Shown here one piece after another: positions 456-17,581 of a DNA stretch of 32,000 nt. The first letter of the stretch is position 1; every line of letters starts with the position of its first letter. The notes beneath the pieces were generated by a model that was given only the letters and a program-made list of their open reading frames with translations, ran no database searches and was not told where the DNA came from. Location: positions 2,940,001 to 2,972,000 of the forward strand of contig NC_010814.1 in NCBI RefSeq assembly GCF_000020385.1, in the 5' to 3' direction. The stretch comes from Trichlorobacter lovleyi SZ. GTDB taxonomy: Bacteria; Desulfobacterota; Desulfuromonadia; Geobacterales; Pseudopelobacteraceae. The translations under genes and the position numbers were made by a program.

Positions 456-1463
456 CTACTTCAGGAAGACCTCAATCTTGGCCTTCTTTTTGGCATCTTC
501 CAACGTGGCATTAATTGCCTCAGTCACCTTTTTCCGCTTGAGTGAGTCAGCGATCTTGGCCTTGACTTCATCAAATGCAACCTTGGCTGCAGCCTTTTTC
601 TCGGTCAGCTTGATGATATGATAGCCGAACTGGGTCTCTACCACACCGCTCACGTCACCCGGCTTCATGGCAAAGGCGGTCTCTTCAAACGGTTTTACCA
701 TCTGACCCTTGCCGAAATACCCCAGATCCCCGCCCTGTTTGCTACTGGGGCAACCTGAGTTTTCCTGGGCCAGCTTGGCAAAATCAGCACCTGCCTTGAC
801 CTGCTTGAGCAGATCTTCAATCTTCTCTTTGGCCTTCTTTTTGTCCGCGTCAGTTGCCTTGGCATCCAGTGTAATCAGGATATGGCTGGCACGCACCTGC
901 TCCGGCTGGGTAAAGGTCTCGGGGTTTTTGTCATAAAACTCCTTCATCTCTGCATCTGTCACGACCTGTTTAGGCACAATCACCTGCTCAATATGGTTTT
1001 CAATAATCACATTGCGGCGAATCAGTTCACGCAGATCCTTTTCACTCAGTCCCTGCTCCTTCAGACCTTGCAGGTACTCATCATTTGTCTTGAAACGGGC
1101 CTTTAACTTGGTAACGGCATCATCAATCTTCTTATCCAGATCCTTGACCGGGGTAGCCTTGGCAACCTGATACATCAGTTCTCCGCCCAGCATCTGGTTC
1201 AGCAGGAACTGCTGCACTTCCTTCTCCTTACCGGGAGGCACCTGGGCTGCAGAAGGTGACTTGCTGAAGGCATTCAGCGCCTTCTGCAGATCCGCTGCAG
1301 GGATGGCAACGCCATTCACCCGTGCCACCGGGTCAGGCAACGAGTTGGTCTTTTCAACAGCAGCAGGAGCCGGCTTCTTCTCAGCAGCTCCTGCATCTGC
1401 ACTACCCAGCATGGCTACAGCTGCTGCCAGTACCGCAATGGTCAGACAACGGTTGAACATCAT
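456..1463 (-). CDS. Secreted peptidyl-prolyl cis-trans isomerase, parvulin (PpiC/SurA/PrsA-like) family
   Basis: Parvulin domain: ASHILI...GGDLGYFGKGQMVKPFEETAF...ETQFGYHIIK. Start trimmed to ATG 1463 (MMFNRCLTIAVLAAAVAMLGSADA, a signal peptide), which has AAGGAG 11 nt upstream. The track ORF began at 1520. Confidence 0.85.
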   Translation of the reverse strand: MMFNRCLTIAVLAAAVAMLGSADAGAAEKKPAPAAVEKTNSLPDPVARVNGVAIPAADLQKALNAFSKSPSAAQVPPGKEKEVQQFLLNQMLGGELMYQVAKATPVKDLDKKIDDAVTKLKARFKTNDEYLQGLKEQGLSEKDLRELIRRNVIIENHIEQVIVPKQVVTDAEMKEFYDKNPETFTQPEQVRASHILITLDAKATDADKKKAKEKIEDLLKQVKAGADFAKLAQENSGCPSSKQGGDLGYFGKGQMVKPFEETAFAMKPGDVSGVVETQFGYHIIKLTEKKAAAKVAFDEVKAKIADSLKRKKVTEAINATLEDAKKKAKIEVFLK

Positions 1464-1555
1464 AACAGTACAATCTCCTTTAGTGATGGTTTTGATTGAG
1501 AATGTATAACACGGCGTCAATCAAGGAAAAAGCGGATTTTTTTTAAGAATCATTT

Positions 1556-1584
1556 TTGACTTTTCAATTACTTTCGAGTACAGT
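1556..1584 (+). promoter_or_regulatory. Candidate sigma70-type promoter for the cheY-like operon
   Basis: TTGACT (1556-1561), 17-nt spacer, TACAGT (1579-1584), about 60 nt upstream of the cheY-like start. Sequence match only. Confidence 0.3.
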
Positions 1585-1647
1585 TCCGGCATACAAAACC
1601 TGCCATTCGGCAGGGCCACCAAAGCCACACTGGGAGGGAAGGTGTCT

Positions 1648-2007
1648 ATGAAGAAGGTGCTTGTCGTTGATGACAGCCTCTCCGTAACCCGCCAGCTGGA
1701 AAAGATCATAAATGATTCCGGCGATTTTGTCTGTGTCGGCCATGCAAAAAACGGGGCCGAGGCAATCAAGATGAACCATACGGAAGACCCTGACATTATC
1801 TGCATGGATATGAACATGCCCGGTATGGATGGTCTGACCGCCCTGCGCAGTCTGGTAATGCTGGACAAGGCAGTGCAGGTGGTAATGGTCACCTCCCTGG
1901 GGGGTGTCGGTGATAAGTTTACCGAGGCCATCAAACTTGGGGCAAAAAATGTTATTTCCAAGCCGTTTGAGACGGAAAACGTGCTGCGTATCCTGCGGGC
2001 GCTCTAA
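1648..2007 (+). CDS. cheY: Single-domain response regulator (CheY-like receiver)
   Basis: VLVVDDS..., IICMDMNMPGMDG (phospho-acceptor Asp), VVMVTS, ISKPF (conserved Lys). About 119 aa with no output domain. ATG 1648 lies downstream of GGGAGGGAAGG; GTG 1642 is the alternative start. Confidence 0.8.
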   Translation: MKKVLVVDDSLSVTRQLEKIINDSGDFVCVGHAKNGAEAIKMNHTEDPDIICMDMNMPGMDGLTALRSLVMLDKAVQVVMVTSLGGVGDKFTEAIKLGAKNVISKPFETENVLRILRAL

Positions 2008-2028
2008 CAGGGCTGGGGGGCTAAGCCA

Positions 2029-2895
2029 ATGGCAGTAAAATTCTTTGGACAATTTCTGGTGGAACAGGATGCGGTGACCGGTGAGTCGCTGCTCCACGCC
2101 ATAGAACTGCAGGAGCGGACTAATCTCAAACTGGGAGAGATGGCCGTTGCCATGGGGTTCATTACACAGCAGGATATTGAAACAGCCCATTCAGCCCAGC
2201 TGTCAAAAGACATGAAACTGGGCGATCTGCTGGTTGAGCTCGGTTTTCTTTCTCCAAGACAGTTGGAAGAGGTCATTGCCCACCAGAAGGCCACCCACCT
2301 CTATATCGGTGAGGCACTGGTCAAGGTTGGTGCTCTGACCCCGGAAAAACTTGATCATTATCTTGCTGCATTCAAGGCGGACCAGGCTCCCTATGTCGCC
2401 AACCATGTTGAACTGCCTGCCTGGCTCAGCGAGAATGCTACCGCCTGGGAAATGACCGTAGATCTGACCTACAAGATGATCACCAGGGTCATCGGCATTC
2501 AATTTCGTCCCGGTAAATTTTTCGAGACCAGCGTGCTTTCCAGTAACCATATGATTGCTGCCATGGATCTCAGCGGCGACCTGACCGCCCGTTACCTGCT
2601 CTCGGTCTCGGCCGGCATTCAAAAAACCATCGCCAAGGCAATTCTTAAAGAAGACAATGTTGACCATGAGGACGATGAAATCCTTGAAGACACGGTGATG
2701 GAATTTGTGAACATCGTCTGCGGCAACGTTGTGGCAAAGGCATCACAGATGGGGGTTACGCTTGACATCAATCCCCCGATCACGCTGCATCCCTCATCGG
2801 ACGGTCTGGTCGTACCGGACAATTACCGTTGTGTTGTATTCCCTATCCATGTCGGTGATGATGAAGTCATGGAAATGGCTCTGTTTATCAAATAG
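2029..2895 (+). CDS. Fusion protein: N-terminal tandem MshEN/T2SSE_N-like 24-residue motifs plus C-terminal CheX/CheC-family CheY-P phosphatase-like domain
   Basis: Four 24-residue units at a strict 29-residue period (res 5-28, 34-57, 63-86, 92-115). Units 2 and 3 are KLGEMAVAMGFITQQDIETAHSAQ and KLGDLLVELGFLSPRQLEEVIAHQ, joined by a 5-residue spacer. The C-terminal half has D221-x3-E225-x2-N228 (DTVMEFVN) followed by PP249-250, as in CheC/CheX/FliY. It lies 21 nt downstream of the cheY-like gene. Confidence 0.7.
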   Translation: MAVKFFGQFLVEQDAVTGESLLHAIELQERTNLKLGEMAVAMGFITQQDIETAHSAQLSKDMKLGDLLVELGFLSPRQLEEVIAHQKATHLYIGEALVKVGALTPEKLDHYLAAFKADQAPYVANHVELPAWLSENATAWEMTVDLTYKMITRVIGIQFRPGKFFETSVLSSNHMIAAMDLSGDLTARYLLSVSAGIQKTIAKAILKEDNVDHEDDEILEDTVMEFVNIVCGNVVAKASQMGVTLDINPPITLHPSSDGLVVPDNYRCVVFPIHVGDDEVMEMALFIK

Positions 2896-2919: not shown

Positions 2920-2949
2920 ACAAGGGCACCCCCACCAGGGTGCCCTTGT
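2920..2949. terminator. Bidirectional hairpin terminator between convergent operons
   Basis: ACAAGGGCACCC (2920-2931) pairs with GGGTGCCCTTGT (2938-2949): a 12-bp perfect stem with a 6-nt loop. The 3' arm touches the stop codon of the minus-strand methyltransferase. Confidence 0.7.
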
Positions 2950-3686
2950 TACGTTCCAAGCAAGATCTTTGTCACCTCATCCGTATAATGTTCCGTATCG
3001 CTCCTCACCAGCAGTGGTGGCAGAATCTGCAGATTGGCAGACGTTCTCCCCTTTGTCAGCTCCACCAGAAAGACCTTGGCCGGTGCAGCGGGCAAGCCAT
3101 GCACCATCCTTAGCCGTAGTACTGCAAGCTTCTGAGCAGCAGCCTCAACCATTAATTCGACCAGACGGTCCGGGTGATGGACCATGCAGATTCTTCCGGA
3201 AGGCTTGACCAGATACTTGGCCGCAGCCAGAAAATCAGCCAGCCCTGCCGTGGTCTCATGACGGGCGGCCAGTTTTCCGGGGTGGGGGTTCAACCGTCCC
3301 CTGCCCTGCTTGCGATAGGGGGGGTTACTAACCACCAGGTCGCAGCTTGAAACCGGCAGATGGCGCCGGACCTGCAACACATCATCGTGAAGCACGGTTA
3401 CCCGCTCTGCCAAACCATTCAAACCGACATTTTGTCGAGCCAGCGAAGCGGCAGCGTCATCCTGTTCAAAAGCTGTAATATGGGCAGCAGCTGCCATGCG
3501 AGCAAGAACAAGTGCCATGACGCCGCAGCCGGTCCCCAGGTCAACAATGGATGTTTCCTGACTGGCATTGGCAAAGTCACACAGTAGCAAAGGATCAAGG
3601 CTGAAGCGATACCCCTGCTTTGGCTGCAGCAAGGTCAGACCAAACCGTTTCAGTTCATCCTGGGTAACGTCAGACTGTTGATCCAT
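2949..3686 (-). CDS. NPPY-motif SAM-dependent methyltransferase, TrmN6/YfiC-like (tRNA m6A37 methyltransferase family)
   Basis: GYRFSLDPLLL, DLGTGCGV (SAM motif I), VVSNPPY. Start trimmed to ATG 3686 (MDQQSDV), with GGAG 9 nt upstream. It overlaps the upstream gene by 17 nt. Confidence 0.65.
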   Translation of the reverse strand: MDQQSDVTQDELKRFGLTLLQPKQGYRFSLDPLLLCDFANASQETSIVDLGTGCGVMALVLARMAAAAHITAFEQDDAAASLARQNVGLNGLAERVTVLHDDVLQVRRHLPVSSCDLVVSNPPYRKQGRGRLNPHPGKLAARHETTAGLADFLAAAKYLVKPSGRICMVHHPDRLVELMVEAAAQKLAVLRLRMVHGLPAAPAKVFLVELTKGRTSANLQILPPLLVRSDTEHYTDEVTKILLGT

Positions 3687-6087
3687 GCTCACGTCTCCGC
3701 AACCACCACTCCCGAACGGCCACAACGCCAAACAGAGCAAACGAACCCAAGGTTAACCACTTACCAATTTTAAACGGCAGTGGATCAAAACGGAACTCAA
3801 CCGTATGCTTTCCGGGTGTCAGGTAAACCCCGCGCAGGATGTGGTTGACCGGAACGATAGGAGTTGGTTTGCCGTTGTCAATGGCATACCACCAGTTATA
3901 ATATTTCTCGCCAAGCACCAATAAAGCTGATTGAGGCGTGTTTGCAGACAACCGGATACGGTTTGGCTCATACCGTTCTATGCTAACTGCAGGCAATGCC
4001 GCGACTCCCCCAGACAGAGCGACCGGCGGGGCAGACTCAACCACAGCAACAGCACGGGGGTCAAACTGCGGCCCGCGCATGAAAGCAATCCGATCGCGGG
4101 GAGACGGTATCTGACGTATGGCCGGCACCAGCCAGGCCTTGGGCAGCACAGTCCTGTTTTCCAACACAATCGCGTTGTTGGCAGAATGAAACACTGGCTG
4201 ATACTTGCTGACTAGTAATTCCTTCTGGGCATTATACTCGTTAGCCGGCATCACCAGATATTTAAGGTTCATGATATCCGGCATTGCCGAGAGTAACACC
4301 AGATTATCCAAGTATTCCCGATAGCGCTTCTCACTGACCGTCACATAGGAGGCCACGGTAGGCAGATGGTAGTCGCTATAGTAATGAGCCTCCTGCTCGT
4401 TGAGCGGTTGCATCCGGTACAGCCCGATCTGTTTTTCCAGGAATGCGACCGTATCCGTTTTGGCCCGTTGTTTATCTGCAACCGGTGGAGCCGTAACTAC
4501 GAGGAAGCGGGTGTTTACCCTCCAGAGGTCTGCAACCAGAAGTAGCCCCAACAGTGGCACAATCACCGACCAGCGCAGCCAACGCTTATACCCGGCAAAC
4601 AACACCACTAAATAAACGCAGGCAATACCAAAAGCAGTCCCCACTTCAGTCAGCATAAACCAGATCCGCTCATTGATCAGCCCGATGCCGCTCTGATAGC
4701 GAGTGGATTCATCAATAAATCCTCTGGTAAGCGCGAGAATCTTCTCAGGCATCATCATCACCTGTAGCCATAGCGCCCCGATAATCAGTACCATCAGTGC
4801 AAGGGCAGCTATCCACCCCGGAAGCTTCTGCTGCAATTCCTCCTGATCACTCAACAGCAGATCAATTGCCCTCCCCATCAGCACTGCTGCAGCAAAGGCA
4901 CAGAGAAACAGGATCATCTTCGGCACCCGAAAGGTGGAAAAACCCGGCAGATGGTCAAACATAAACTGATAGACAAAGGTATACTTACCCAAGGCCATCA
5001 GCAGGGCACTCCCCATCAGAAAGCTGAAAAACCAGTTCAGGCGGTCTCGCCTGAACAACAATGGCAACGGCAATAAGAACCACGGTAACAGGCCCAGGTA
5101 GTCACTGGTCTGGGTGAAGTACATCCGCCCCCAGTAATAGGCCTCACCTTTTTGAGGCGTATCGCCGGCTTCCTGTCGGGAAAAACCGAACATGCCCGGT
5201 ATCAGAAAGGTGGCAATCTCTTCAGGCGGCATTGACCAACTCATCCCTTGAGTCTGGCTCATACCTCCGCCCCGTTCAGACTGTTTCGACCAGCTTAAGA
5301 GCGGCGCAAACGACATGGCAATGGTACTGAAAAAGAAAGCAACCATAACCACTGCAAGGGCGACATCTCTGGATAACGCCCTGACTCGATAATTGCCCAC
5401 CTCGTCATGCCAGCGGAATACCACCTGGAACAGCCAGTACACAGCAACAGCAAGACAGGTATAAAAGGATATCTGCCAGTGCATGTGGAAGAACTGAACC
5501 GCAAGTAACAAGCCTGTCAACAGATAGTGAAACAGCCGCCCTCCGACCAGGGCAGACTCAAATGCGAGCAAAATCCAGGGTAGCCAGGCAATAGCTTCAA
5601 TTTTCTGAATATGCCCGGCATTGATCAGGGTCAGGTTTTCTGAACAGAGGGCAAATAACAGGCCGGCCAGAAAGGCACCAACACGACTGACACCAATTCG
5701 ACGGCAGTAATAAAATGTTCCGATACCTCCCCACGCCAGAGCCAGCACAGCCAGCCAGGCAATACTGGCAGGAAACGGCAGCAGACGCTGGATCAAATAA
5801 CGATGAAACAGGAGCGTAATGGCATTCCAGCCCCCCTCCAAGGAGCGCCCTCCATCGCTGAACGGCTCCCAGTTGGCCTGAAAGGCGCCAGCCACACTGG
5901 TCAGGTACTCAAACGGGGTCTGTTGCTTGACCTGTTTGGCAGCCCAGAAAAACTGAGTAATCACATCTGAAGCCCTGATGATCTGGTCGGTGAAAAGTAT
6001 CCGTCCACAAAACAAGACCACCACGCAAAGCAGCAGAATAGCCCAGAACAGGTCATGATCCCAGAGACGCGGTTTCTGTTCAACCAT
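3670..6087 (-). CDS. Large polytopic membrane protein, YfhO-like / GT-C-fold glycosyltransferase candidate
   Basis: 805 aa. Many hydrophobic helices in the first ~560 residues, then a soluble (periplasmic?) region and a final TM helix. An acidic residue sits in the first loop (ASDVITQFFW). GGAG lies 7 nt upstream of ATG 6087. The family call is by architecture only. Confidence 0.5.
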   Translation of the reverse strand: MVEQKPRLWDHDLFWAILLLCVVVLFCGRILFTDQIIRASDVITQFFWAAKQVKQQTPFEYLTSVAGAFQANWEPFSDGGRSLEGGWNAITLLFHRYLIQRLLPFPASIAWLAVLALAWGGIGTFYYCRRIGVSRVGAFLAGLLFALCSENLTLINAGHIQKIEAIAWLPWILLAFESALVGGRLFHYLLTGLLLAVQFFHMHWQISFYTCLAVAVYWLFQVVFRWHDEVGNYRVRALSRDVALAVVMVAFFFSTIAMSFAPLLSWSKQSERGGGMSQTQGMSWSMPPEEIATFLIPGMFGFSRQEAGDTPQKGEAYYWGRMYFTQTSDYLGLLPWFLLPLPLLFRRDRLNWFFSFLMGSALLMALGKYTFVYQFMFDHLPGFSTFRVPKMILFLCAFAAAVLMGRAIDLLLSDQEELQQKLPGWIAALALMVLIIGALWLQVMMMPEKILALTRGFIDESTRYQSGIGLINERIWFMLTEVGTAFGIACVYLVVLFAGYKRWLRWSVIVPLLGLLLVADLWRVNTRFLVVTAPPVADKQRAKTDTVAFLEKQIGLYRMQPLNEQEAHYYSDYHLPTVASYVTVSEKRYREYLDNLVLLSAMPDIMNLKYLVMPANEYNAQKELLVSKYQPVFHSANNAIVLENRTVLPKAWLVPAIRQIPSPRDRIAFMRGPQFDPRAVAVVESAPPVALSGGVAALPAVSIERYEPNRIRLSANTPQSALLVLGEKYYNWWYAIDNGKPTPIVPVNHILRGVYLTPGKHTVEFRFDPLPFKIGKWLTLGSFALFGVVAVREWWLRRREHGSTV

Positions 6088-7105
6088 GCTGTTGCTCCTT
6101 ATGCGACTCGATCATATCGCGATAGATTTCTTCCAGACGAGACATCATTCCCTCAATGGTAAATTGTGCAAGAAAAGCCTGGCCATTGGCAACCAGCTGG
6201 CGGGATTGTTCCGGTTTTGTCAGACACTGTATCAGACAGTCTGCCAATGCTTCCGTATCATCCAGGTCAAACAAAAAACCGGTTTCACCATGCTGTACCA
6301 GTTCCGGATGACCGCCAACCCGTGAAACAACAGGGGGCAACCCGGCCATGGTTCCCTCGGCAATCACCAACGGTGTAGCCTCAATTTCCGACGGCAGCAC
6401 CAACACCTTGCCCCTGCTGTAGGTCTGATACACCTGTTCCCGCGGCATGCCGTAGATGTACTCAACCGGCAGGTTGCGCGACAGAAAACGGGCAAACAAC
6501 CTTGAGTGCAACGGTTCCTTACCAATCACCAACACCCTGGCAGCGGGCACCTTTTCCAGTACCAAAGGCAGGGCTTTCAGCAAACGGTGCAAACCTTTGC
6601 GAAAATAATCGCCGCCCACAAACAGAATCAGATCCTCACGCTGCTGCCACGGTTTGGGGGTAATGGCTGAATAATCCAATCCAAAATAGAAGCTGAGATA
6701 CTTGCGGGGATGCTGAATCAGATCATACAGAAACTGGCCGTGCAGGATCAGGCCATCAATCTTTTTAAATAGAAAATGATACTTCAGCCTTCGCAGCTTC
6801 TGCAGCAGAAAACGCAGCGGGAAGTCCGGGCAGAAAAAGTGGTAATAATGAACCCAGTAATAGTCATGGACATCCACCACCAAAGGACAGCGCAGACGAC
6901 GGGCCACAGCCCAGGAGAGATGCTTCAGGTTGGTACAGTGGGCAACATCCCAATCACCGGCGAGGTCCTGCTCGGATTCATACAATTTGACAGTACAGCG
7001 TTTACCCAGTTCCCTCAGCAGGTTGGCCTCATAGGTGCCACTGCCGGTTAAAGACAGATTGGGACGGGTCAACAACAGGACCTTTAATCGGTTGTCACTG
7101 GTCAC
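6080..7105 (-). CDS. Glycosyltransferase family 4 (GT-B, glycos_transf_1)
   Basis: C-terminal EATPLVIAEGTMAGLPPVVSRVGGHPELVQHGETGFLF. Start moved to GTG 7105, which forms a GTGA overlap with the upstream stop (7102-7104). GGAAAGG lies upstream. The track start at 7201 would overlap the neighbour by 100 nt. Confidence 0.75.
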   Translation of the reverse strand: MTSDNRLKVLLLTRPNLSLTGSGTYEANLLRELGKRCTVKLYESEQDLAGDWDVAHCTNLKHLSWAVARRLRCPLVVDVHDYYWVHYYHFFCPDFPLRFLLQKLRRLKYHFLFKKIDGLILHGQFLYDLIQHPRKYLSFYFGLDYSAITPKPWQQREDLILFVGGDYFRKGLHRLLKALPLVLEKVPAARVLVIGKEPLHSRLFARFLSRNLPVEYIYGMPREQVYQTYSRGKVLVLPSEIEATPLVIAEGTMAGLPPVVSRVGGHPELVQHGETGFLFDLDDTEALADCLIQCLTKPEQSRQLVANGQAFLAQFTIEGMMSRLEEIYRDMIESHKEQQHG

Positions 7106-7884
7106 GACAACACCTTTCCAGGCAATCCACTCCTTTTTAATAAACGGTACAGAGCAGAATGAATGATCTGATAATAGAGTGGCAACAGGTATGAAAACCA
7201 CCAGGGGAAGAGAGCCGGATGCAGGGCCGCTATCAGACGATGCATGGCCAGCCGCTTCTGGCTGTCCATAAGCGCATTCATAGATTCATGCCTGATGCGG
7301 TACCCAAACCCCACCTCCGGCAGCCTCAGCACCTTACGCCCCAACTCCAGCAAAGAGATCCAGAACTCCCAATCCTCACAGCCGTAACGCATCTCCGGCT
7401 TATAGCCACCTACCTTTTCCCAATCTGCCTTTCTGAACAAGGCAGAACAGAAGATCAGGTTGCTGAACCGCATCCGGGATAATGAGAAGGAAGCGGCCTG
7501 TATCAGCCCCTCGGCATCCCCGAACTTTTCCCCCCTGCAGTACACGATGCCGAGTTCCAGGTCAGCCTCAAGGGCTGCCGCAGCCTGACTGATATAGTGC
7601 GGCCCAATCCGGTCATCCGCATCCAATGGCAGGATATACTGTCCTTGAGCTGCAGCTATGCCTGTATTACGAGCTGTGGACAGTCCACCATTCTGACGCC
7701 GCACCAAGCTGGTTCTGGGATAGTTCAGCGTCTCCAGAATCAGGCAGGTTTCCGGTTCAGTGGAACCATCGTCCACCACAATGATCTCCAGATCTTCAAA
7801 ATCAGATGCCAGTACCGAAGCGATTGATTCTGCCAGATACGCCCCCTGATTGTAGCAGGGTATGATCACAGAGACGGCTGGCAT
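7102..7884 (-). CDS. Glycosyltransferase family 2
   Basis: VSVIIPCYNQGAYLAESIASVL...LEIIVVDDGSTE, DADD, CEDWEFW. Confidence 0.85.
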   Translation of the reverse strand: MPAVSVIIPCYNQGAYLAESIASVLASDFEDLEIIVVDDGSTEPETCLILETLNYPRTSLVRRQNGGLSTARNTGIAAAQGQYILPLDADDRIGPHYISQAAAALEADLELGIVYCRGEKFGDAEGLIQAASFSLSRMRFSNLIFCSALFRKADWEKVGGYKPEMRYGCEDWEFWISLLELGRKVLRLPEVGFGYRIRHESMNALMDSQKRLAMHRLIAALHPALFPWWFSYLLPLYYQIIHSALYRLLKRSGLPGKVLS

Positions 7885-7886
7885 AG

Positions 7887-9878
7887 TTATCCTTGTATTA
7901 CCTTGCGGTACTGTTCACAGAACCGGTCACCGCAAAACTGCGCCTGAGCATAACCATAGGCTGCAATAGCCAGCTGTTCCAACAGCTTTCTGTTGCCATG
8001 AAGTTGGACAATGGCATCATGCAGTGCCGTAACAACGGCATCCTCATCCTGATCGGGCAACAGCCAACCGTTTTCAACATGCCGGATATGCTCCGGTATA
8101 CCGCCGACAGCCGTACAGACCGGCACACAGCCCTGGGCCATACCCTCCATGACCGTTAGCGGGAACCCTTCACGGCTGGATACAATCACAATCAGGTGGG
8201 CAGCGGCATAGATCTCAGCCAACGCTGCAGCATCATCAATATGCCCCGTAATGCGACAGTACATGTCATCACCTGACTCTAGACTATCAGGTCCAGCCCC
8301 CACCAGTATGAAGTTGGCCTGCAGTCCCTCCTGGCAACAACGCCGGGCGGTTCGGCCAATCAGATGCAGCCGTTTTTCCTCGCTGCCGCGACCGACAAAC
8401 AGCACCTGCAACGGACCGTCCCATCGTTTTCCAGGCATGACTGACGGCACAGGTACACTATTGGGAATCAGTACGATCCGCTCAGCAAGGGCGGCATCAA
8501 GACCTGATTTTTCATACTGTTCCTGCAGATCCTGACTGGTCTTATGATTGATCACTACCCGGCAATCAAGCCGTGGCACAGCCGGCAGGGTAAAGATTTC
8601 AACACCTGCACCAAAGGCATGGATCAGATCGGAACAACGGACATGGGGCTTCAAAAATGGCAGCAGCAAGGCATAAAAAAGGCTGTTAGCTCCAAACACC
8701 ACCGGCCGTTGATGGCGATTGATAAACCCGGCAGCCAAGCCTACGCTAAAGGGATAGAGATACTTGCAGATTGGCCAGAGATTAAACAGCCTGGCTCCCT
8801 GATCAAACAAGCCGTAAAAATCACGCGAAGACGACTTTTTGGTAAAAACAATCCACGGCTTCTCGCTATGAAAACAGCGCACCACGCCGGCATGAACCCG
8901 TTCAGCACCACCCATATGAAAAAACGGGAAGAAAAAAAACAGACCGGAACGGTTGACCACGGGGAGTAATGCCCCAATCATTGCCGACAGGCGCACAAAT
9001 AGCTGCACAACAGCAGTACGGTTGAGTTGTAAAGCCAGTTTATCGCGATTATCATCCGGCCAGTCGCCTAGCAACAGACGGAATAATCGCTTTACCGCCA
9101 GGCGGGCAGCATCACGAAGTAGTGACACGCTAACCTGTAAGCAAAATGAATTCAGACGCCAATTTACAAGGGCATGGCGTAGAAAGTAGTTCTTTGCTCT
9201 CAAATGCCTATATTCCGGTGGCAATGAACGCCCCGCGGAACTGAAAGACGAGTTAACAATCCGGTAATACAGTAGAACTGCCGGTATCTTTGCCACCTGC
9301 AGACCATCAGACACCAGCCTGAGCAACAGATCATAATCCTCAACGGCATCCCGTCCACCTCGATAACGGTATTGGCGCAGTATTTTCGCCCTGATCATCA
9401 AGGAAGAGTTTGCAACACAATTGGCCCTCGGCAAGAATGCCCTTATCTGATCAGGAGTGACCGTAGATCTGTCATCTGCCCAGCCACTCAGGAAGGTTCC
9501 GTTTTCGTCAACACACTCGATACATGCAGCCACTGCAGCCACGGACTGATCCGTATCCAAAAAAGCAACCTGTTCGGCAAGCCGTTCCTCTGTGCTGATA
9601 TCATCACAATCCATCAAGGCGATATACTCCCCACGGGCCAGCTCAATCCCCCTGTTGCGAGTTACTACAATCCCTTGATTGATTTCATTTTTAACGCTGA
9701 TTATGCGGGTATCATGATACGAGGCAATGCAAGCAGCAGAAGAATCGGTTGAGCCATCGTCAACAATGATCAGCTCAAAATCATGGAAGCTCTGTCCTAG
9801 AATACTGTCGATCGCCTCCCGCAGAAAGCGCTCACCATTGTAAACCGGCATCAAAACCGAGACCCGTGGCGATATCAT
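7887..9878 (-). CDS. Bifunctional glycosyltransferase, N-terminal GT2 fused to C-terminal GT4-like domain
   Basis: N-terminus: VSVLMPVYNGERFLREAIDSIL...ELIIVDDGSTD, MDCDD. C-terminus: HMGGAERV ... SSREGFPLTVMEGMAQGCVPVCTAVGGIPEHIRHVENGWLL. ATGA overlap with the following gene at 9875-9878. Confidence 0.8.
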   Translation of the reverse strand: MISPRVSVLMPVYNGERFLREAIDSILGQSFHDFELIIVDDGSTDSSAACIASYHDTRIISVKNEINQGIVVTRNRGIELARGEYIALMDCDDISTEERLAEQVAFLDTDQSVAAVAACIECVDENGTFLSGWADDRSTVTPDQIRAFLPRANCVANSSLMIRAKILRQYRYRGGRDAVEDYDLLLRLVSDGLQVAKIPAVLLYYRIVNSSFSSAGRSLPPEYRHLRAKNYFLRHALVNWRLNSFCLQVSVSLLRDAARLAVKRLFRLLLGDWPDDNRDKLALQLNRTAVVQLFVRLSAMIGALLPVVNRSGLFFFFPFFHMGGAERVHAGVVRCFHSEKPWIVFTKKSSSRDFYGLFDQGARLFNLWPICKYLYPFSVGLAAGFINRHQRPVVFGANSLFYALLLPFLKPHVRCSDLIHAFGAGVEIFTLPAVPRLDCRVVINHKTSQDLQEQYEKSGLDAALAERIVLIPNSVPVPSVMPGKRWDGPLQVLFVGRGSEEKRLHLIGRTARRCCQEGLQANFILVGAGPDSLESGDDMYCRITGHIDDAAALAEIYAAAHLIVIVSSREGFPLTVMEGMAQGCVPVCTAVGGIPEHIRHVENGWLLPDQDEDAVVTALHDAIVQLHGNRKLLEQLAIAAYGYAQAQFCGDRFCEQYRKVIQG

Positions 9879-10750
9879 GGCAGACGCACCCAGGTTTCCG
9901 GCAAAAGATCGTTGGTAGTTATAGCCGGGTCAGTGAACCACCGGCAGGGGGCGACAACCAGCTTGTGCGGAGACGGATTCAACCAGGCTCCCCACCAGCT
10001 AAAGCTGCTATTGGCAATAATCTGATGAGCACAGCGCGAAATCAGCACCAGCTCCTCGGCTGAGCCATTCAATCCAAAATCTGCGGCAAGCCTGAACGGC
10101 TGCCCAAGATCAAGATGTTCCTGACACCATGCCGGATCATCCGAAAACACCAGAAACTGAGAATCGGGATAACTCGTTAGAATATTGGCAACGGCAGCCT
10201 GATAATAATCCTGAGAGCAGATACCATGAAAGCTGGCTGCTGCCGGATTGGTGACATAGTCACCACGCCTGACATGCACCGCCACAGTGGCATCAGAGAG
10301 TACGCTGCTTGCCTTACGTAAGGCAGGACTTGGTGCTTTAAGACTAAGTTCCTGCTGCAGAAGACTGGTAATCTGCTTAAAATAACACTCAGATTGCCAG
10401 AAACCATCCAGAATACAACTCGACGGTGCCCTGAAAATTAATGGATCAAACCCGCAGCCCTGCTCTTTTAGTATGATGCTGCCCCACAAAGGAATGCTGG
10501 CCTTCAGCAACAGCCGATGCATGCATGCCTGATAACTCCCCAATGGCTGACGGCCCTCCTCAGCCAATAGCGATGCCTTGATGTTAAACGGAGCAAGTTC
10601 AAAACAACGAGGAGTATCTCCCGGTTTTGGATGCTGTAACCTTGAAAGATCAAGGAGCAGCTCAACATCATGTTTTTCAGCTAACGCCCTTCCGGCTGCA
10701 TATTGAAAAAGCTGGTTACCCAGACCGCCATTCAACAGTACCGTAATCAC
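9875..10750 (-). CDS. Alpha-1,2-fucosyltransferase (GT11 family)
   Basis: LNGGLGNQLFQYAAG, HVRRGDY, IANSSFSWWGAWL, which are the GT11 signature motifs. Start moved to GTG 10750 (GTGA overlap with the upstream stop). GGAGG lies 7 nt upstream, giving N-terminus M-ITVLLNGGLGNQ. Confidence 0.85.
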   Translation of the reverse strand: MITVLLNGGLGNQLFQYAAGRALAEKHDVELLLDLSRLQHPKPGDTPRCFELAPFNIKASLLAEEGRQPLGSYQACMHRLLLKASIPLWGSIILKEQGCGFDPLIFRAPSSCILDGFWQSECYFKQITSLLQQELSLKAPSPALRKASSVLSDATVAVHVRRGDYVTNPAAASFHGICSQDYYQAAVANILTSYPDSQFLVFSDDPAWCQEHLDLGQPFRLAADFGLNGSAEELVLISRCAHQIIANSSFSWWGAWLNPSPHKLVVAPCRWFTDPAITTNDLLPETWVRLP

Positions 10751-11532
10751 AACAGATCCTCCGGCCGGTCCTTGACGAAACAGAAACATCCGCAGCCGTA
10801 TGCTTGGCCGTCAACCAGTTCTGTTTTAGGTGCTATCAGCAACCCAATCGAGGGATCGTCTGGAACCAAAGAAAAACTAATAAGCCTCAGACCAGGGAAA
10901 AGTGCACAGACCTGTTCATAGCTATAGATTCGATGGGCATTAAAGGCTGTTCTCGGCCTCCCCACCGGTGTCACCAGCAACAAGCGACCGTCTGGCGCAA
11001 GCACCCTGCTCAATTCAGCAGCAGCCTTGACATCACCCTTGTCATCAAGCGGATCACCATAGCGGCCAAGCCCGATATGCTCAATAACATGCATACAGGA
11101 AAGCGACGAAATGCTGTTGTCTTCAAAATGAAGTGTGAGCAGGTTCGCATGCCCGCAGGACAGTCCTGAAAGAGACAACTCGGCAGGGCGGTAATCATAG
11201 AAACGAATCGGCACAAAAGCGGAAACCAACGCGACAAAGTAAAGCGATGAACCGATATCAATATGCTCTTCAGGTCGTGTGTCAGCAAGCTGGCGGGCAG
11301 CCCAGGCAGTATGATAGACATAGTGCCGGTCAAAACCGGTAGTCACGGTAGAATCGAACAAACAGGGGTAACGGTCTTTCCAGCGGAGTCTTATCTTTCC
11401 GGTCTGCCCTAGCATCTGCGAGTAACGCAGGTAATCCCTTAGAAACAAAAAATAGTGCAGTGGCAGGCGAACAGAACGCCAGATAAAACGGATGAGAACT
11501 ATCTGTTCAAAGTATGCACGAAGACGTTTCAT
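10747..11532 (-). CDS. Class I SAM-dependent methyltransferase, DUF268-like (probable sugar O-methyltransferase)
   Basis: HIDIGSS..., SLSCMHVIEHIGLGRYGDPLD, LAPDGRLLLVTPVG, YGCGCF. It sits between the flippase and the fucosyltransferase. Substrate unknown. Confidence 0.6.
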   Translation of the reverse strand: MKRLRAYFEQIVLIRFIWRSVRLPLHYFLFLRDYLRYSQMLGQTGKIRLRWKDRYPCLFDSTVTTGFDRHYVYHTAWAARQLADTRPEEHIDIGSSLYFVALVSAFVPIRFYDYRPAELSLSGLSCGHANLLTLHFEDNSISSLSCMHVIEHIGLGRYGDPLDDKGDVKAAAELSRVLAPDGRLLLVTPVGRPRTAFNAHRIYSYEQVCALFPGLRLISFSLVPDDPSIGLLIAPKTELVDGQAYGCGCFCFVKDRPEDLL

Positions 11533-12845
11533 CAGTTGATCCGCAGCAGCCGTTCAAGGCGGAAATTAACTACACCAACGGCAACCAGATAAGCTACCGA
11601 GGCAATTATCAAAGCAGCAGCCATACCATTTACGCCATAGCTCACAACGAGATAGCCCCCAACTCCAAGCAACACAAAGGCATGAATGGCCTTAGGCCAC
11701 AGATAGATGCCAGGACGGTTGGCACAAATCCCTACCAGTGCCATCAGCTGCCCCACCTGCCACAGAGAAAGGCCAAGTACCAGCATCCAGAGCAGGTCAG
11801 AATGCCGCGTAAATTCAGTCGTTGTCAGCAGCAATGCGACAGGACGGCCCAGTAAGGCAGTGAGCACTGTTCCCGTTCCAGAGCAGATGACGGCAAAGAG
11901 CATGATGCGCATAATCAAACGTCGAACTTCAAGCCTCTGGGCACTGCTTGTCATTGTACCTGCCCGTTCATAAATAATCGGCACCATCAACTGATTAATA
12001 ATGGCAAACAATAGATTGACCGGAGAAGCTGCGATCTGAAACAAGGCCGCATAAATACCAACTGATGCGGTTCCTGCAGCCAGTTGGAGCACCCAGCGAT
12101 CAGCATAGAGAGTGACCACGGTAAACAGTGCGTATCCAACAAAAGGAAGAACAAATGTCACAAATTCATGCTGTGCCTGGGACACCTGTTCCTCTTGTGG
12201 CACCACCGCAACTCGGCTCTGCTGCTGTTGCTGACCTCGAAACATGCGATACTGCCACAAAACAACCAAAAATGAGCCAACACAGTATCCACCCAATGCG
12301 GCTGAACCACTGCCCCAAAAAATGGCCGCAAAAATAGCACAGCCTATTCTCAGCCACACATCGCCAATCTGAGCTAGAGTTGCGTTTCTACGATCACGAG
12401 CCGCATTCTGCCAGGCAAGAAACGAAACGCCAACACCACTGATCATCCCAAATACAAGTCCCCACAATACCAGCCCACCCCACACGCTGCCCTTAGCCAT
12501 GTATACGAGTAGTGATCCAACCATAACAGGCAAAATAAGCAACAGCAGCAGCTTGGTATGGAGACTGCGCAGTACAAAAAAATACAGGTTTTCTTTGCCG
12601 CAATCTCGATAGGGTGCATAAAAGCGTGCAGCAGCATTGGAAAGCGGGTTATGCAGAAAGGTGGTCAGAAAACCGGCAATGGTTAATCCAAGAGCCAAAT
12701 GACCATATTCAGAAGCTCCCAACTGGCGGGTGAGCAGCTTGATACCGACCAGCCCCCCCAGAAAAGCAGCAGCATGCCCGGCAAGCACCCAAAGCAGTTC
12801 TCCGCGCAGGCGAAGAATCTGTTGCATCAAGGGGGGCATGGGCAC
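11532..12845 (-). CDS. wzx: Polysaccharide/oligosaccharide flippase (Wzx, MOP superfamily)
   Basis: About 437 aa and highly hydrophobic, with 12 or more predicted helices, in a glycan-cluster context. The start is uncertain: GTG 12845, ATG 12839 or ATG 12827, none with a clear SD. The stop overlaps the next start by 1 nt (TGATG). Confidence 0.65.
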   Translation of the reverse strand: MPMPPLMQQILRLRGELLWVLAGHAAAFLGGLVGIKLLTRQLGASEYGHLALGLTIAGFLTTFLHNPLSNAAARFYAPYRDCGKENLYFFVLRSLHTKLLLLLILPVMVGSLLVYMAKGSVWGGLVLWGLVFGMISGVGVSFLAWQNAARDRRNATLAQIGDVWLRIGCAIFAAIFWGSGSAALGGYCVGSFLVVLWQYRMFRGQQQQQSRVAVVPQEEQVSQAQHEFVTFVLPFVGYALFTVVTLYADRWVLQLAAGTASVGIYAALFQIAASPVNLLFAIINQLMVPIIYERAGTMTSSAQRLEVRRLIMRIMLFAVICSGTGTVLTALLGRPVALLLTTTEFTRHSDLLWMLVLGLSLWQVGQLMALVGICANRPGIYLWPKAIHAFVLLGVGGYLVVSYGVNGMAAALIIASVAYLVAVGVVNFRLERLLRIN

Positions 12846-12860
12846 AATTAATACAACCGT

Positions 12861-13826
12861 CTAGGAGACATACTGTTCAACAAACCACCGGTACGCATCC
12901 CGCACGCCATCCTCCAGCTCTATGCGATGCTTCCAGCCCAAGGCATGCAGCCGGGAGGAGTCGGCCAGTTTACGGGGAGTGCCGTCCGGTTTGTCCGTAT
13001 CAAAGACCAGCTCACCTTCGAAGCCCACCACCTGCTGCACCATTCGGGCAAGATTGGCAATGCTGATTTCCTGGCCTGATCCGACGTTGATCAAGGCAGG
13101 TGCGTCAGAATACATAAGAAGTTCTTCATAGCAACCATCATCCAGCAGCATCAAAAAAAGTGAAGCATCTGCCAGATCGTCCACATGCATGAATTCACGT
13201 AGCGGTGTGCCGGTACCCCAGACGGTGACATTTGGAGAACCCGATTGTTTTGCCTCATGAAACTTACGCAGCAGGGCCGGCAGGACATGGGAGCCGGTCA
13301 GGTCATAGTTGTCACCGGGGCCGTAAAGGTTGTTGGGCATGGCGGCCAGAAAGCGGGTGCCGTACTGCTGGTTGTAGGTACGGCACTGAACAATACCGGC
13401 AATCTTGGCTATGGCGTAGGCATCATTGCTTGGCTCAAGCGGGGAGGTCAGCAGGTCCGTCTCACGAATCGGTTGGGGAGCAAATTTCGGGTAGATACAG
13501 GTACTGCCCAGAAACAGTAGTCGCTGAACACCATTTTTCCAAGCCTCGTGAATCACATTAGTCTGAATCATCAGATTGTCGTAAATGAACTCTGCCTTAC
13601 GGGTGCTGTTGGCAATAATCCCGCCCACCCGTGCTGCAGCCAGAAAGACATACTCAGGCTGTTCCTGTTCAAAGAAAGCCGCAACAGCGGACTGATTACG
13701 CAGATCAAGCTCTGAAGATGTCTTTAACACCAGATTCCGGTAGCCTGCCTGTTCCAGCTTTCTGACAATGGCAGAACCGACCATGCCGCGGTGGCCTGCT
13801 ACGAAAATTTTTGCATCAGATTTCAT
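12861..13826 (-). CDS. fcl: GDP-L-fucose synthase (GDP-4-keto-6-deoxy-D-mannose 3,5-epimerase/4-reductase)
   Basis: [70 protein letters not shown]. Collinear with E. coli Fcl along the full length. GGAGGAG lies upstream. Confidence 0.95.
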
Positions 13827-14443
13827 TACCGCTCCTCCAAAAATACAACCGGAACCTTGATTGACATCGGATCAGCCCCGAGATCAAGCAAGGCGTGATA
13901 GAGTACTTCAGCTCGATTACGTGAGCTGATCAACACCTTATACATCCCGCTCAACATGGCACGGGCCAAAGACACAACTTCATGCCCCATAAACGTGCCT
14001 TCCGTGTCATCAGTATCCATTACCAACGCCACTTCAATACCTGCTTCATGCAAAGCCAGCCAGGCCAGTTCAGCACACCCATCTATACCGCACAAGGCCA
14101 CCCGCTCGACCCCTTCATCCCTAAACTGCCGGCACAACTGACGATATTCCTGCAGCAGCAACGGAATCATGCGATCCAGGTAACGGCTGTGCAGCAGCGC
14201 CAGCCTCCGCAGTTCAGCACAGCCTCTGGAGGTAAGGTGATAGGTGCAGCGATTGCCGGACCGTTCTTTGATTCTGACCCATCCTTTGGCAACAGCGGTC
14301 TTAAGGTAGTTGTTGACCAACCCCAGGGCACTATCCAACCTGCGGGCCAGATCACGCTGCGAGCTGACAGGGCCCTGCTCTAACTCGCAGAGCAGCCTGA
14401 ACAGAGTATAATCATCAAGTGATGCAGCTGTCGATTTGTTCAT
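13826..14443 (-). CDS. Winged-helix (MarR-like) transcriptional regulator with an uncharacterised C-terminal alpha/beta domain
   Basis: The N-terminus ([35 protein letters not shown]...WV) looks like a wHTH. The C-terminus ([30 protein letters not shown]...KVLISS) looks Rossmann-like. ATG 14443 preferred; TTG 14479 is the alternative. The stop shares 1 nt with the fcl start (TAATG). Confidence 0.55.
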
Positions 14444-14468
14444 GACCTGAACCGTACCCCAGGACAGA

Positions 14469-15659
14469 TTATTTTTCAACCTTCAGCAGCCGTTGATAGA
14501 TCGCTTCCAGTTCTTGCACCCGGGCATCCCAGCCAAGCTGTTCAACGGCCCGTGAGCGCAAGCGCCTGCCTTGTTGGCGCAACTGTTCCCGGTCTGCCAA
14601 AGCATGCGCAATACAATTGACCAGATCAACGGTATCGCCGAATACGGCATAGATGCCGTCATCCCCCAGTAGTTCACGGTTTACCGGCGTGTCAAAGGCC
14701 ACCACCGGCAGGCCGCAGGCCATGTAGTTCAGAAGTTTTCCATTGGCTTCAGTGTCAGAAACCTTGGGCGAGACCGCCAGGTCTCCTGCAGCAAGCATCT
14801 GGGGCGCCCTGGCATAGTCAATCATACCGGTAAAGGTCACAAAGCTTGCAATATTCAGCTGATCTGCCAGCTGGCGATACTGCTGCTCCGGATACCCCAT
14901 GATCACCAGATGAAAAATCCTCCCCTGGTGAATCAACTGTTTTGCAGCCTGTAAAAGCAGATCAACCCCTTGATATTGATTGAGCAGCCCGAGATAGACA
15001 ATGACCGGTATCTCATCAGCAATCCCCAACAACTGTCTTGCTTCGCTGCGGGAGTAGGGACGAAAAACGGTTGTATCAACACCATCGGGTAAGGCAGTAA
15101 CCCGTTCCTGCGGAAGCCTCCACAGACCTGTCAGCTCTTGCCGGCCCGGTGTTGAACTGGTGATGATCAGATCGGCCAGGCGGTTGATGCGGTTTTCAAT
15201 GCTGCAAAACAGACGATGCAGCAGGGTGTTTGCACCGAAAAAACCATGATTGAGTGACTCGCCGCTCAGACTGCCTTGATAATCAAACAGGAGTGGTATC
15301 CTGCGCAACCGGGCCACCAGCCAGCCGACCAACGCTCCTTCATGCAGATGGGCATGTATCAGATCCGGCTTGAAACGCCGTGCAACCCCGAACGCCTTAC
15401 AGAACAGCACCAGATCAAGATACGGTTTGTGCCAGGAAGGACCGGCCTCCCGCTTCCGGTACCAGGGCAGCGGAAGCGTACGATCAACCGGTACCGGTTC
15501 TAGATCGCGCCCCAGGTGATAGGTCACAATCCGGACCTGATGCCCCCGCGCCATCAAGGCCTTTGCCTCTTCAAAAATCCTGACGTGGCAGCCCCGATCA
15601 GAAAAATACGGAGTTGGCGCGATCATCAGGATACGTAACCGCCTATCAGACATAGTCAT
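14469..15659 (-). CDS. Glycosyltransferase family 4
   Basis: RILMIAPTPYFSDRGCHVRI..., C-terminal SPKVSDTEANGKLLNYMACGLPVVAFDTPVNRELLGDDG. It overlaps the upstream gene by 14 nt. Confidence 0.8.
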   Translation of the reverse strand: MTMSDRRLRILMIAPTPYFSDRGCHVRIFEEAKALMARGHQVRIVTYHLGRDLEPVPVDRTLPLPWYRKREAGPSWHKPYLDLVLFCKAFGVARRFKPDLIHAHLHEGALVGWLVARLRRIPLLFDYQGSLSGESLNHGFFGANTLLHRLFCSIENRINRLADLIITSSTPGRQELTGLWRLPQERVTALPDGVDTTVFRPYSRSEARQLLGIADEIPVIVYLGLLNQYQGVDLLLQAAKQLIHQGRIFHLVIMGYPEQQYRQLADQLNIASFVTFTGMIDYARAPQMLAAGDLAVSPKVSDTEANGKLLNYMACGLPVVAFDTPVNRELLGDDGIYAVFGDTVDLVNCIAHALADREQLRQQGRRLRSRAVEQLGWDARVQELEAIYQRLLKVEK

Positions 15660-16602
15660 CCGGCTCGTTCAGACGCTCCCGTACGGAGTAGATCGGCTTG
15701 CCCTGGGATTCGTAATAGGTACGGGCATTCAGCTCTCCCAGCAGACCAAGGGTGATGAACTGGATCCCCATGAACATCAGGAAGGCGGTCAGGATCAGGA
15801 GCGGATTGCGGTTCATACTGGTATTGGCAAACAGCTTCATATAGACCATGGCGCCACCGGTGACACAGGCCAGCAGCATCGAGTAGATGCCCCACTTGCC
15901 GAACAGCTGAATCGGCTTGGTGGCATAGGAAAGCAGGAATTTGACCGTCAACAGATCCAGCACCACCCGCACGGTACGGGAGATACCATACTTGCTGGTG
16001 CCGTACAGACGGGGATGATGCCGCACCGGAAGCTCAGTTACCCTGGCGCCGATCCGCGAGGCCAGGGCAGGCACAAAACGGTGCATCTCCCCGTAAAGGC
16101 CAATCCCGTCCAGTACCTCGCGGCGATAGGCCTTCAGGGTGCAGCCATAGTCGTGCAGATGGACATCTGTCAGACGGGAGATCAGGCCGTTGGCAATCAT
16201 GGAAGGCAGTTTCCGGTTGATGAAGGTATCCTGCCGATCCTTGCGCCAGCCTGAGACCACATCATAGCCCTCCTTGATCTTTTCCAGCAGTAACGGGATA
16301 TCAGCCGGGTCATTCTGCAGATCACCGTCCATTGGCACGATCACGGCCCCACGGGCCGCCTCAAATCCGGCGGCCATGGCTGCTGTCTGGCCAAAATTGC
16401 GTCGGAAACGGATCACCCGCAGCCGCTGGTCAGTGGCAGCAAGCTCCTTAAGCAGAGTAAAGGAGTTATCGCCAGAGCCGTCATCAACACAGATAACTTC
16501 GTACTGCAGGCCGGTTGGAGCAAGTGCAGCTGTTATGGCATCATACAGCGGCCTGATATTATCTTCTTCAAAGTAGATCGGTACGACAATACTGAGATCC
16601 AT
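15646..16602 (-). CDS. Polyprenyl-phosphate glycosyltransferase (GT2, GtrB/ArnC/DPM1-like) with two C-terminal TM helices
   Basis: LSIVVPIYFEEDNI, VICVDDGSGDNS, RFRRNFGQTAAMAAGF, MDGDLQNDP, VVSGWRKDRQD, then two hydrophobic helices. Start trimmed to ATG 16602, with GGAG 9 nt upstream. The track start at 16626 is TTG. Confidence 0.8.
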   Translation of the reverse strand: MDLSIVVPIYFEEDNIRPLYDAITAALAPTGLQYEVICVDDGSGDNSFTLLKELAATDQRLRVIRFRRNFGQTAAMAAGFEAARGAVIVPMDGDLQNDPADIPLLLEKIKEGYDVVSGWRKDRQDTFINRKLPSMIANGLISRLTDVHLHDYGCTLKAYRREVLDGIGLYGEMHRFVPALASRIGARVTELPVRHHPRLYGTSKYGISRTVRVVLDLLTVKFLLSYATKPIQLFGKWGIYSMLLACVTGGAMVYMKLFANTSMNRNPLLILTAFLMFMGIQFITLGLLGELNARTYYESQGKPIYSVRERLNEPDDYV

Positions 16603-16622
16603 CTCATATACTCCAGTAGGTA

Positions 16623-17564: not shown

Positions 17565-17581
17565 TACAGCTCCACAAACAG

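Follow-up and report, generated by a model that had tools for sequence, protein, structure and literature searches.

A 32,000-nucleotide stretch of the Trichlorobacter lovleyi SZ genome (NC_010814.1, positions 2,940,001 to 2,972,000; "the window" throughout) encodes a 288-residue protein in which four units related to the cyclic di-GMP (c-di-GMP)-binding motif of MshE, the MshEN motif, are fused to a CheX-type phosphatase domain. A stand-alone CheY-like receiver is encoded directly upstream. On balance, sequence comparison, structural models and analogy with characterized systems favor the reading that the fusion is a CheX phosphatase that senses c-di-GMP and is dedicated to the receiver encoded beside it, whose dephosphorylation it would gate. 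Binding of c-di-GMP, phosphatase action on the neighboring receiver and gating of the one by the other are each plausible.

The architecture and its functional interpretation have been known since 2016 for the same gene. Wang et al. 2016 (Nat Commun 7:12481, Suppl. Table 4, Fig. 3c) listed "(MshEN_N)2-CheX", exemplified by Geobacter lovleyi Glov_2742 (ACD96455), gave its range as "Deltaproteobacteria, Firmicutes" and cited no experimental reference; for this architecture they inferred that c-di-GMP feeds into chemotaxis through CheX. All of the N-terminal residues printed for Glov_2742 in their Supplementary Fig. 3c (133/133) are identical to the window protein, which is very probably Glov_2742 itself. 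The original prediction, made from the window sequence, had allowed that the architecture might be uncharacterized; it was in fact already described for the same protein. Since the basic architecture is published, the value of the present analysis is that of an experimental lead with added detail rather than a discovery. The additions are a strict partnership with the receiver, natural fusions to receivers, the length and conservation of the sensor array, and a possible nested topology. Wang et al. 2016 mention no receiver partnership, synteny or receiver fusions.

In the proposed mechanism, the two genes would form a self-contained signaling module of the Geobacterales and Desulfuromonadales. 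The receiver would be phosphorylated by a kinase encoded elsewhere, and the CheX-family phosphatase would strip the phosphate via E225 and N228, as characterized CheX enzymes do. The N-terminal sensor is pictured as a rigid body of 111 residues and eight helices carrying four MshEN-type half-site motifs. Units 2 and 3 would build a canonical MshEN_N four-helix bundle with one bound c-di-GMP, and units 1 and 4 a second, variant bundle around it, with the aromatic residues F5 and Y92 in the places of the stacking Arg/Lys. Ligand occupancy may be relayed via the last sensor helix and a short linker to CheX, altering its activity or the access of the receiver. Cellular c-di-GMP would then set the lifetime of the phosphorylated receiver, through either activation or inhibition of the phosphatase. 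If true, this would be the most direct route yet for the sessile/motile messenger c-di-GMP to reset a chemotaxis-type phosphorelay. The hosts are metal-reducing, electrode-colonizing bacteria, for which the choice between attachment and swimming matters.

The sensor array

The four 24-residue units follow one another at an exact 29-residue period, separated by the spacers ERTNL, LSKDM and KATHL. The NCBIfam model NF053729 (53 residues, "cyclic di-GMP-binding domain, MshE-related") scores the array at 100.8 bits against a cutoff of 38, recognizes each unit singly (E = 2e-4, 1.5e-6, 5.4e-8 and 3.3e-3 for units 1-4) and gives 55-57 bits for any pair of adjacent units. By these matches the four-unit repeat is not a product of chance. 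A phmmer search likewise matches the array to c-di-GMP-bound MshE (5htl) and to the GSPII domains of PilF. Scored with the relaxed motif of Wang et al. 2016, unit 3 has no mismatch and unit 2 has one (H54, position 21), in agreement with the original prediction that these two units fit the MshEN signature.

In MshE, the backbone amide of the Gly at position 3 reads a guanine, and mutating this Gly abolishes binding. Conservation was followed in two sets: 80 sequences, comprising the window protein and 79 orthologs, and a set of 124 diverse representatives reaching down to ~26% identity. The position-3 Gly of all four units is unchanged in 80/80 sequences and kept in 122-123 of the 124 distant relatives. 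Q28, Q57 and Q86 are as conserved as this Gly and likewise unchanged in all 80, as are F5, F6, G7, H54, G94 and F115 and the fourth residues of the spacers (N32, D61, H90, Q119); Y92 is found in 78. Units 1 and 4, which had been read as degenerate copies, retain Gly-3 and the hydrophobic cluster positions, strongly conserved. Because F5, F6, G7, Q28, G94 and F115 are invariant and Y92 is nearly so, these two units have not decayed; judged by their conservation, they are a constrained variant of the motif and not relics. Array length is exactly 111 residues in 122 of the 124 diverse relatives, and with a mean identity of 70-73% across the 80 sequences the array is better conserved than CheX (64%) or the linker (45%).

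Two independent AlphaFold models of the protein have predicted local distance difference test (pLDDT) values of 86.0 and 88.9, with values above 90 over most of the CheX domain. Foldseek places the N-terminus of both models on c-di-GMP-bound MshE (5htl) with a root-mean-square deviation (rmsd) of 1.0-1.1 Å over 56-57 columns. Over 56 residues, the predicted fold is therefore compatible with the MshEN four-helix bundle, as had been anticipated.

The CheX phosphatase domain

By homology and predicted fold, the C-terminal half is a CheX-type member of the CheC/CheX/FliY family, and its activity can be predicted from that assignment. It matches the Pfam CheX model PF13690 (E = 3.6e-15, 56.2 bits against a cutoff of 27) and, at a lower score, the CheC model PF04509 (E = 4.2e-7, 30.2 bits against a cutoff of 22). 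The models align with Thermotoga maritima CheX (1squ) at template modeling (TM) scores of 0.83-0.86 and an rmsd of 2.3-2.6 Å, and with Borrelia burgdorferi CheX in 3hzh at TM 0.79-0.80. In the alignment, the active-site pattern recognized in the original prediction falls on the same columns as S-x3-E-x2-N in T. maritima CheX and T-x3-E-x2-N in its B. burgdorferi counterpart, with E225 and N228 matching the catalytic E and N of both enzymes; P249/P250 line up as well, the family signature having its conserved Pro about 21-22 residues further on. Across the 124 diverse relatives, the three residues D, E and N are retained in 109, 114 and 112 sequences. The protein thus resembles T. maritima CheX (1squ, 1xko) and B. 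burgdorferi CheX (3hzh, a CheX-CheY3-BeF3 complex) in fold (TM 0.79-0.86), in having one catalytic helix with E-x2-N, and in proline spacing. Those enzymes, however, are single-domain, sensorless proteins of ~150 residues at 18-20% identity, whereas the window protein carries a 136-residue N-terminal extension.

Distribution and partnership with the receiver

The family is large: in an exhaustive, profile-free search of representatives of 50%-identity clusters, 2661 relatives score E <= 1e-3, 793 of them E <= 1e-10 and 104 E <= 1e-30. Most of the 150 best relatives, which extend down to ~26% identity, are full length (276-295 residues). A relative is encoded in 186 species-level genomes. Going by record titles, the best 80 of these are nearly all Geobacter-type, Desulfuromonas-type or unclassified Deltaproteobacteria metagenome-assembled genomes, two being labelled otherwise (Dongiaceae, Pedobacter). 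A profile search adds Malonomonas, Desulfuromonas, Geoalkalibacter, Trichloromonas and one Nitrospirota genome. The nearest named relative, at 91% identity, is that of Trichlorobacter thiogenes.

Gene context was surveyed in the 80 closest loci each of a genome and a metagenome scan, all of them close relatives, and that of distant members in six single look-ups. A receiver gene lies directly upstream in 80/80 genome loci, and 68 of the 77 further loci that leave room for one have it too, which bears out the co-occurrence of the fusion with its cheY-like neighbor. Among orthologs of at least 49% identity that have upstream sequence, the receiver is upstream in all but one, with a gap of 17-203 nt, mostly below 120 nt. 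Identity across these loci is 79-100% for the receiver and 57-91% for the phosphatase, which speaks for a coupling between the two. Such far better conservation of the receiver, together with its lack of the aromatic switch typical of motor-binding CheY, suggests that it is a heavily constrained hub protein. The flanking isomerase, methyltransferase and YfhO-like genes are syntenic in most loci. One JGI metagenome contig (Ga0209016_1000362) encodes a fusion protein 100% identical to that of the window and, 21 nt before it, a receiver that is identical too; sampled environments therefore contain near-identical strains.

The two proteins also occur as natural fusions in both orders, sensor-CheX-receiver in five representatives and receiver-sensor-CheX in two. 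At 40-44% identity to the window receiver, the fused ones carry the same unusual signatures, SS[VL]GG and GAKNVI.KPF; the controls, T. maritima CheY and Escherichia coli CheY, are only 36% and 31% identical. By identity and signatures, the fused receivers belong to the same subfamily as the window receiver. Such fusions provide independent support for a functional partnership between receiver and phosphatase. In the stand-alone receiver, the acceptor-site residues D8, D9, D55, T83/S84 and K106 are invariant across 77 orthologs.

Two distant loci show other arrangements. On JBMXMQ010000136.1 (5001-7667), a relative at 29% identity is followed by a 423-residue CheX-receiver fusion and a CheW gene. 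On CAZTWC010000011.1 (340-4873), a relative at 26% identity is the last of four same-strand genes, after those for CheZ, an MshEN-receiver-TPR protein and a receiver/sigma-54 activator. This operon thus encodes two different MshEN-type proteins and two kinds of phosphatase for phosphorylated CheY.

Pairing of the four units

In MshE, two motifs build one four-helix bundle round one c-di-GMP. Backbone amides at positions 3-4 recognize the guanines, as do Leu clusters in which position 2 of one motif joins positions 17 and 21 of the other. Since the four motifs of the present array are equally spaced, their pairing is ambiguous. Wang et al. 2016 drew two tandem domains at residues 1-60 and 61-119, whereas the evidence gathered here favors a nested arrangement, 2+3 within 1+4.

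Structural alignment gives a first indication. Foldseek reports identities to 5htl of 38% and 37% for the two models; ungapped comparison yields 37.5/36.8% for units 2+3, 39.3/38.6% for units 3+4 and ~30% for units 1+2. For the GSPII-B domain of PilF, the Foldseek identities of 32-33% fit units 2+3 (18 identities over ~57 columns), while units 3+4 would give 41%.

Residue covariation gives a second. A mean-field direct-coupling analysis of 490 unique sequences (effective number 203) has its strongest couplings between units 2 and 3; among them are L35-L79, which corresponds to the MshE contact L10-L54, and pairs of helix 1 with helix 4 at separations of 44-51 residues. Unit 1 is also strongly coupled to unit 4, through V16-L97 (7 standard deviations (sd), separation 81), Q8-V98, A24-L97 and L27-L91, and the N-terminus is coupled with residues 118-122. 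Above 4 sd there are six couplings between units 2 and 3, two between units 1 and 4, one between units 3 and 4 and none between units 1 and 2. Moreover, the motif-position pairs (20,6), (12,6) and (27,8) recur in both the 2x3 and 1x4 blocks, whose coupling maps correlate at r = 0.19, every other pair of blocks reaching at most 0.08. A Fisher test at 3 sd is modest (p = 0.035), and some top pairs are co-changes of a single clade.

Because Foldseek identities, coupling counts and recurrent position pairs all point to 2+3 and 1+4, a nested pairing, 1[2 3]4, is proposed with moderate confidence, with units 2+3 as the canonical bundle and units 1+4 packed together. The coupling analysis is blind to the difference between contacts within a chain and contacts across a dimer, and the register in the AlphaFold models is read indirectly. 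The original prediction had singled out units 2+3 as the canonical site, and both the AlphaFold/Foldseek comparison and the couplings favor this choice over the tandem parse. The tandem parse, 1+2 / 3+4, has the NCBIfam model in its favor, and single units align alternately to the first and second half of that profile; as a physical pairing it is set aside, since the Foldseek identities fit 2+3 only and the couplings link units 2-3 and 1-4.

A more tentative extension is that one MshEN_N bundle (2+3) is inserted in the spacer of a variant bundle (1+4), in the layout 24+5+53+5+24 = 111, and that the two create a composite pocket for two ligands or a ligand dimer. The MshE ligand sits where helix ends and spacers converge; both sites of a nested layout would thus face one junction, lined by the invariant N32, D61, H90 and Q119. 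If such a pocket is formed, it could confer a cooperative, switch-like phosphatase response, or a second specificity such as for cyclic GMP-AMP (cGAMP). The 1-4 contacts could instead span the two chains of a CheX dimer, making ligand binding and dimerization interdependent. A nested sensor, if true, would be a new arrangement of a known ligand-binding motif.

Comparison with known systems

Units 2+3 share with the MshEN domain of Vibrio cholerae MshE (5htl) and the GSPII-B domain of Thermus thermophilus PilF (8pdk) the paired 24-residue motifs and the 5-residue spacer, with 37-38% identity and a four-helix bundle fit of 1.0-1.6 Å. Unlike the window protein, with its four motifs, its lack of MshEN_C and its phosphatase output, those domains carry MshEN_C and have a secretion or pilus ATPase under their control. 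Aromatic residues occupy the Arg or Gln positions of MshE and PilF in two of the four motifs here.

Fusion of an MshEN-type domain to an unrelated enzyme has a precedent in E. coli NfrB, where the domain is a c-di-GMP-dependent allosteric activator (PMC10118264). The NfrB profile hidden Markov model matches the window protein weakly. In NfrB, in contrast, the output is a glycosyltransferase and the single sensor domain is C-terminal.

A functional parallel is the PlzC/PlzD-CheX axis of Vibrio (PNAS, PMC12799141; Commun Biol, PMC12887009), in which c-di-GMP effectors are linked to a CheX phosphatase that tunes phosphorylated CheY. The sensor there is a separate PilZ protein, whereas here sensor and phosphatase lie on one polypeptide. 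These 2026 papers link PlzC/PlzD genetically to CheX with no direct mechanism and leave the MshEN-CheX fusion unmentioned; no direct contact was found between PlzD and CheX, and the motility role of PlzC is separable from c-di-GMP binding. The present family offers a one-polypeptide counterpart to this effector-CheX link.

Weighing the proposed gating

Several observations weigh against c-di-GMP gating of a dedicated receiver. On the sensor side, unit 1 departs from the relaxed motif at F5 (position 1) and D14 (position 10), unit 4 at Y92 (position 1) and F115 (position 24), and H54 of unit 2 stands in for a ligand-contacting Leu. Some MshEN homologs have lost binding, such as XpsE (Wang et al. 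2016). MshE draws one ligand contact (D108) from its MshEN_C subdomain, which the window protein lacks, the array running straight into linker and CheX. The full-length Pfam MshEN/T2SSE_N model (PF05157) gives no match at E <= 1, so that the family assignments of the original prediction hold for CheX (PF13690) and, through the MshE-type model NF053729, for the sensor, while the one to T2SSE_N does not. The missing match is explained by the protein holding only the 53-residue MshEN_N part without MshEN_C and does not count against the motif itself; the array is classed as MshEN_N only, not as full MshEN/T2SSE_N.

The motif departures of units 1, 2 and 4, the lack of MshEN_C and of a PF05157 match, and the documented non-binding homologs would all suit an array that, like XpsE, binds no nucleotide and serves as a structural, dimerization or docking domain of an unregulated CheX phosphatase. 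This alternative is unlikely. In relatives down to 26% identity, no array positions are better conserved than those that contact the ligand in MshE, namely the Gly at position 3 in four units, the Gln at position 24 in three and the hydrophobic residues at 2, 17 and 21, and units 2+3 model onto ligand-bound MshE at 1.0-1.1 Å. Furthermore, Arg-to-Ala and Gln changes in MshE cost less than 5-fold in affinity, so the substitutions seen here need not abolish binding.

A second group of observations against the proposed gating concerns the receiver. It is absent next door in three of five sampled relatives of at most 36% identity. The window receiver itself falls under the NCBIfam CheY/CheB cutoffs (87 bits for the best CheY model against a cutoff of 200), and V103, within GAKNVISKPF, occupies the position of Y106 in E. 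coli CheY, leaving no aromatic switch residue. Because of the low scores and this valine, the upstream gene product is most safely named a stand-alone CheY-like receiver, not a textbook CheY.

It is more doubtful still that CheX acts on another receiver, or sequesters the phosphorylated receiver without hydrolysis, with adjacency reflecting co-regulation only. Distant relatives do adjoin other receiver proteins (a CheX-receiver fusion with CheW, or a sigma-54 activator with CheZ) or none, and about 10 of the 124 diverse relatives are without E225 or N228. Against this stand the near-universal adjacency and short gaps among orthologs of at least 49% identity, the occurrence of the same receiver subfamily fused to the protein, and the full catalytic motif of the window protein.

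Three further points count against a dedicated, c-di-GMP-gated phosphatase. In both AlphaFold models the predicted TM score is 0.59-0.62, so the relative placement of sensor and CheX is not confidently predicted. Pfam scans of the other long open reading frames (ORFs) in the 32-kb window found no further che or flagellar gene, as the original prediction had noted for che genes. A literature search (Glov_2742; MshEN with CheX, chemotaxis or phosphatase) returned no experimental study of any member.

Least probable of the alternatives is a sensor that reads another or an additional cyclic dinucleotide, such as 3',3'-cGAMP, with its specificity altered by the variant site of units 1+4: MshEN binds cGAMP weakly (KD 330 uM), Geobacter makes cGAMP via Hypr GGDEF enzymes and has cGAMP riboswitches (PMC10118264), and F5, Y92 and F115 are strictly conserved motif departures in the two mutually co-varying units, yet guanine specificity in MshE comes from the backbone amides of positions 3-4, Gly-3 is retained in all units, and the same variant residues are found far outside the Geobacterales.

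Gene layout and genomic surroundings

The features of the locus are collected in Table 1; reading frames, repeat units, spacers and motifs, re-read from the sequence, all lie exactly where the original prediction had placed them. The 119-residue receiver ORF opens with ATG at 1648 and ends with TAA at 2005-2007, and the 288-residue fusion ORF runs on the same (+) strand from ATG at 2029 to TAG at 2893-2895; the intergenic gap of 21 nt is that originally given for the upstream receiver. On the left, a SurA-like peptidyl-prolyl isomerase gene (456-1520, minus strand) is divergent; on the right, a small methyltransferase gene (2949-3740, minus strand) is convergent. The same strand, the 21-nt gap, the divergent and convergent flanks, and the hairpin between the convergent genes make the pair look like a two-gene operon.

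The weak promoter candidate sits within the 121-nt divergent intergenic region. Inspection of 1521-1641 by eye for a sigma-54 promoter gave a spacing misfit. The hairpin between the fusion and methyltransferase genes overlaps the methyltransferase stop codon and has a predicted energy of -33.9 kcal/mol in a 70-nt context. It is probably a transcription stop common to both convergent genes, although a terminator scan based on T-tracts did not pick it up.

Table 1. Features of the receiver/phosphatase locus, in window coordinates.
Feature	Position	Strand	Remarks
Sigma-70-like promoter candidate, weak, TTGACT-17-TACAGT	1556..1584	+	9/12 consensus matches; consensus match only
Shine-Dalgarno-like GGGAGGGA	1632..1639	+	Read from sequence, 5' of receiver ATG 1648
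Stand-alone CheY-like receiver, 119 aa	1648..2007	+	Pfam Response_reg PF00072, E = 8e-25
Fusion protein, 288 aa: four-unit MshEN_N-type array, linker and CheX (Glov_2742-type)	2029..2895	+	Hidden Markov models, AlphaFold, Foldseek
Unit 1, residues 5-28, FFGQFLVEQDAVTGESLLHAIELQ	2041..2112	+	Variant motif: position 1 is F, not R/K; would pair with unit 4 on the outside
Unit 2, residues 34-57, KLGEMAVAMGFITQQDIETAHSAQ	2128..2199	+	Near-canonical, H54 at position 21; proposed inner bundle with unit 3
Unit 3, residues 63-86, KLGDLLVELGFLSPRQLEEVIAHQ	2215..2286	+	Fully canonical MshEN motif; proposed inner bundle with unit 2
Unit 4, residues 92-115, YIGEALVKVGALTPEKLDHYLAAF	2302..2373	+	Variant motif: Y at position 1, F at position 24; second helix continues toward linker
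Linker, residues 120-136	2386..2436	+	Mean identity 45%; pLDDT 65-78
CheX domain, residues 137-288	2437..2892	+	Pfam PF13690, model positions 1-94 of 94
Catalytic motif D221-x3-E225-x2-N228	2689..2712	+	Aligned with solved CheX enzymes
P249-P250, CheC/CheX/FliY signature proline(s)	2773..2778	+	Spacing as "DITPP" of T. maritima CheX; P250 in 111/124
GC-rich perfect hairpin, 11 bp (13 bp if extended)	2920..2949	.	Arms 2920-2930 and 2939-2949

The rest of the window holds a glycosyltransferase/polysaccharide cluster, cytochrome c maturation genes, purine, thiamine and alanine racemase genes, and nikR, tonB and cobalt-transport genes; no kinase gene lies within the window. A long run of cell-surface glycan genes occupies 2949-17621 on the minus strand, with the MTS methyltransferase, an 805-residue YfhO-like membrane protein, glycosyltransferases of families GT1, GT2 and GT11 (fucosyltransferase-like), a flippase-like Polysacc_synt protein, an epimerase and an HTH_24 protein. 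In most Geobacterales loci, the receiver/CheX operon has the first two genes of this run as neighbors. At 17632-20425 (minus strand), CcsA-like and ResB-like cytochrome c maturation genes stand beside a gene for a small c7/class III multihaem cytochrome, a trait of Geobacter-type genomes. A minus-strand ORF at 25786-26463, without a Pfam match, is probably spurious; it overlaps a thiamine pyrophosphate (TPP) riboswitch at 25828-25928 on the plus strand (Rfam RF00059, 65.1 bits against a cutoff of 54.3), which lies just 5' of a fused thiE-thiD gene (25981-27474) followed by thiC (27471-28760).

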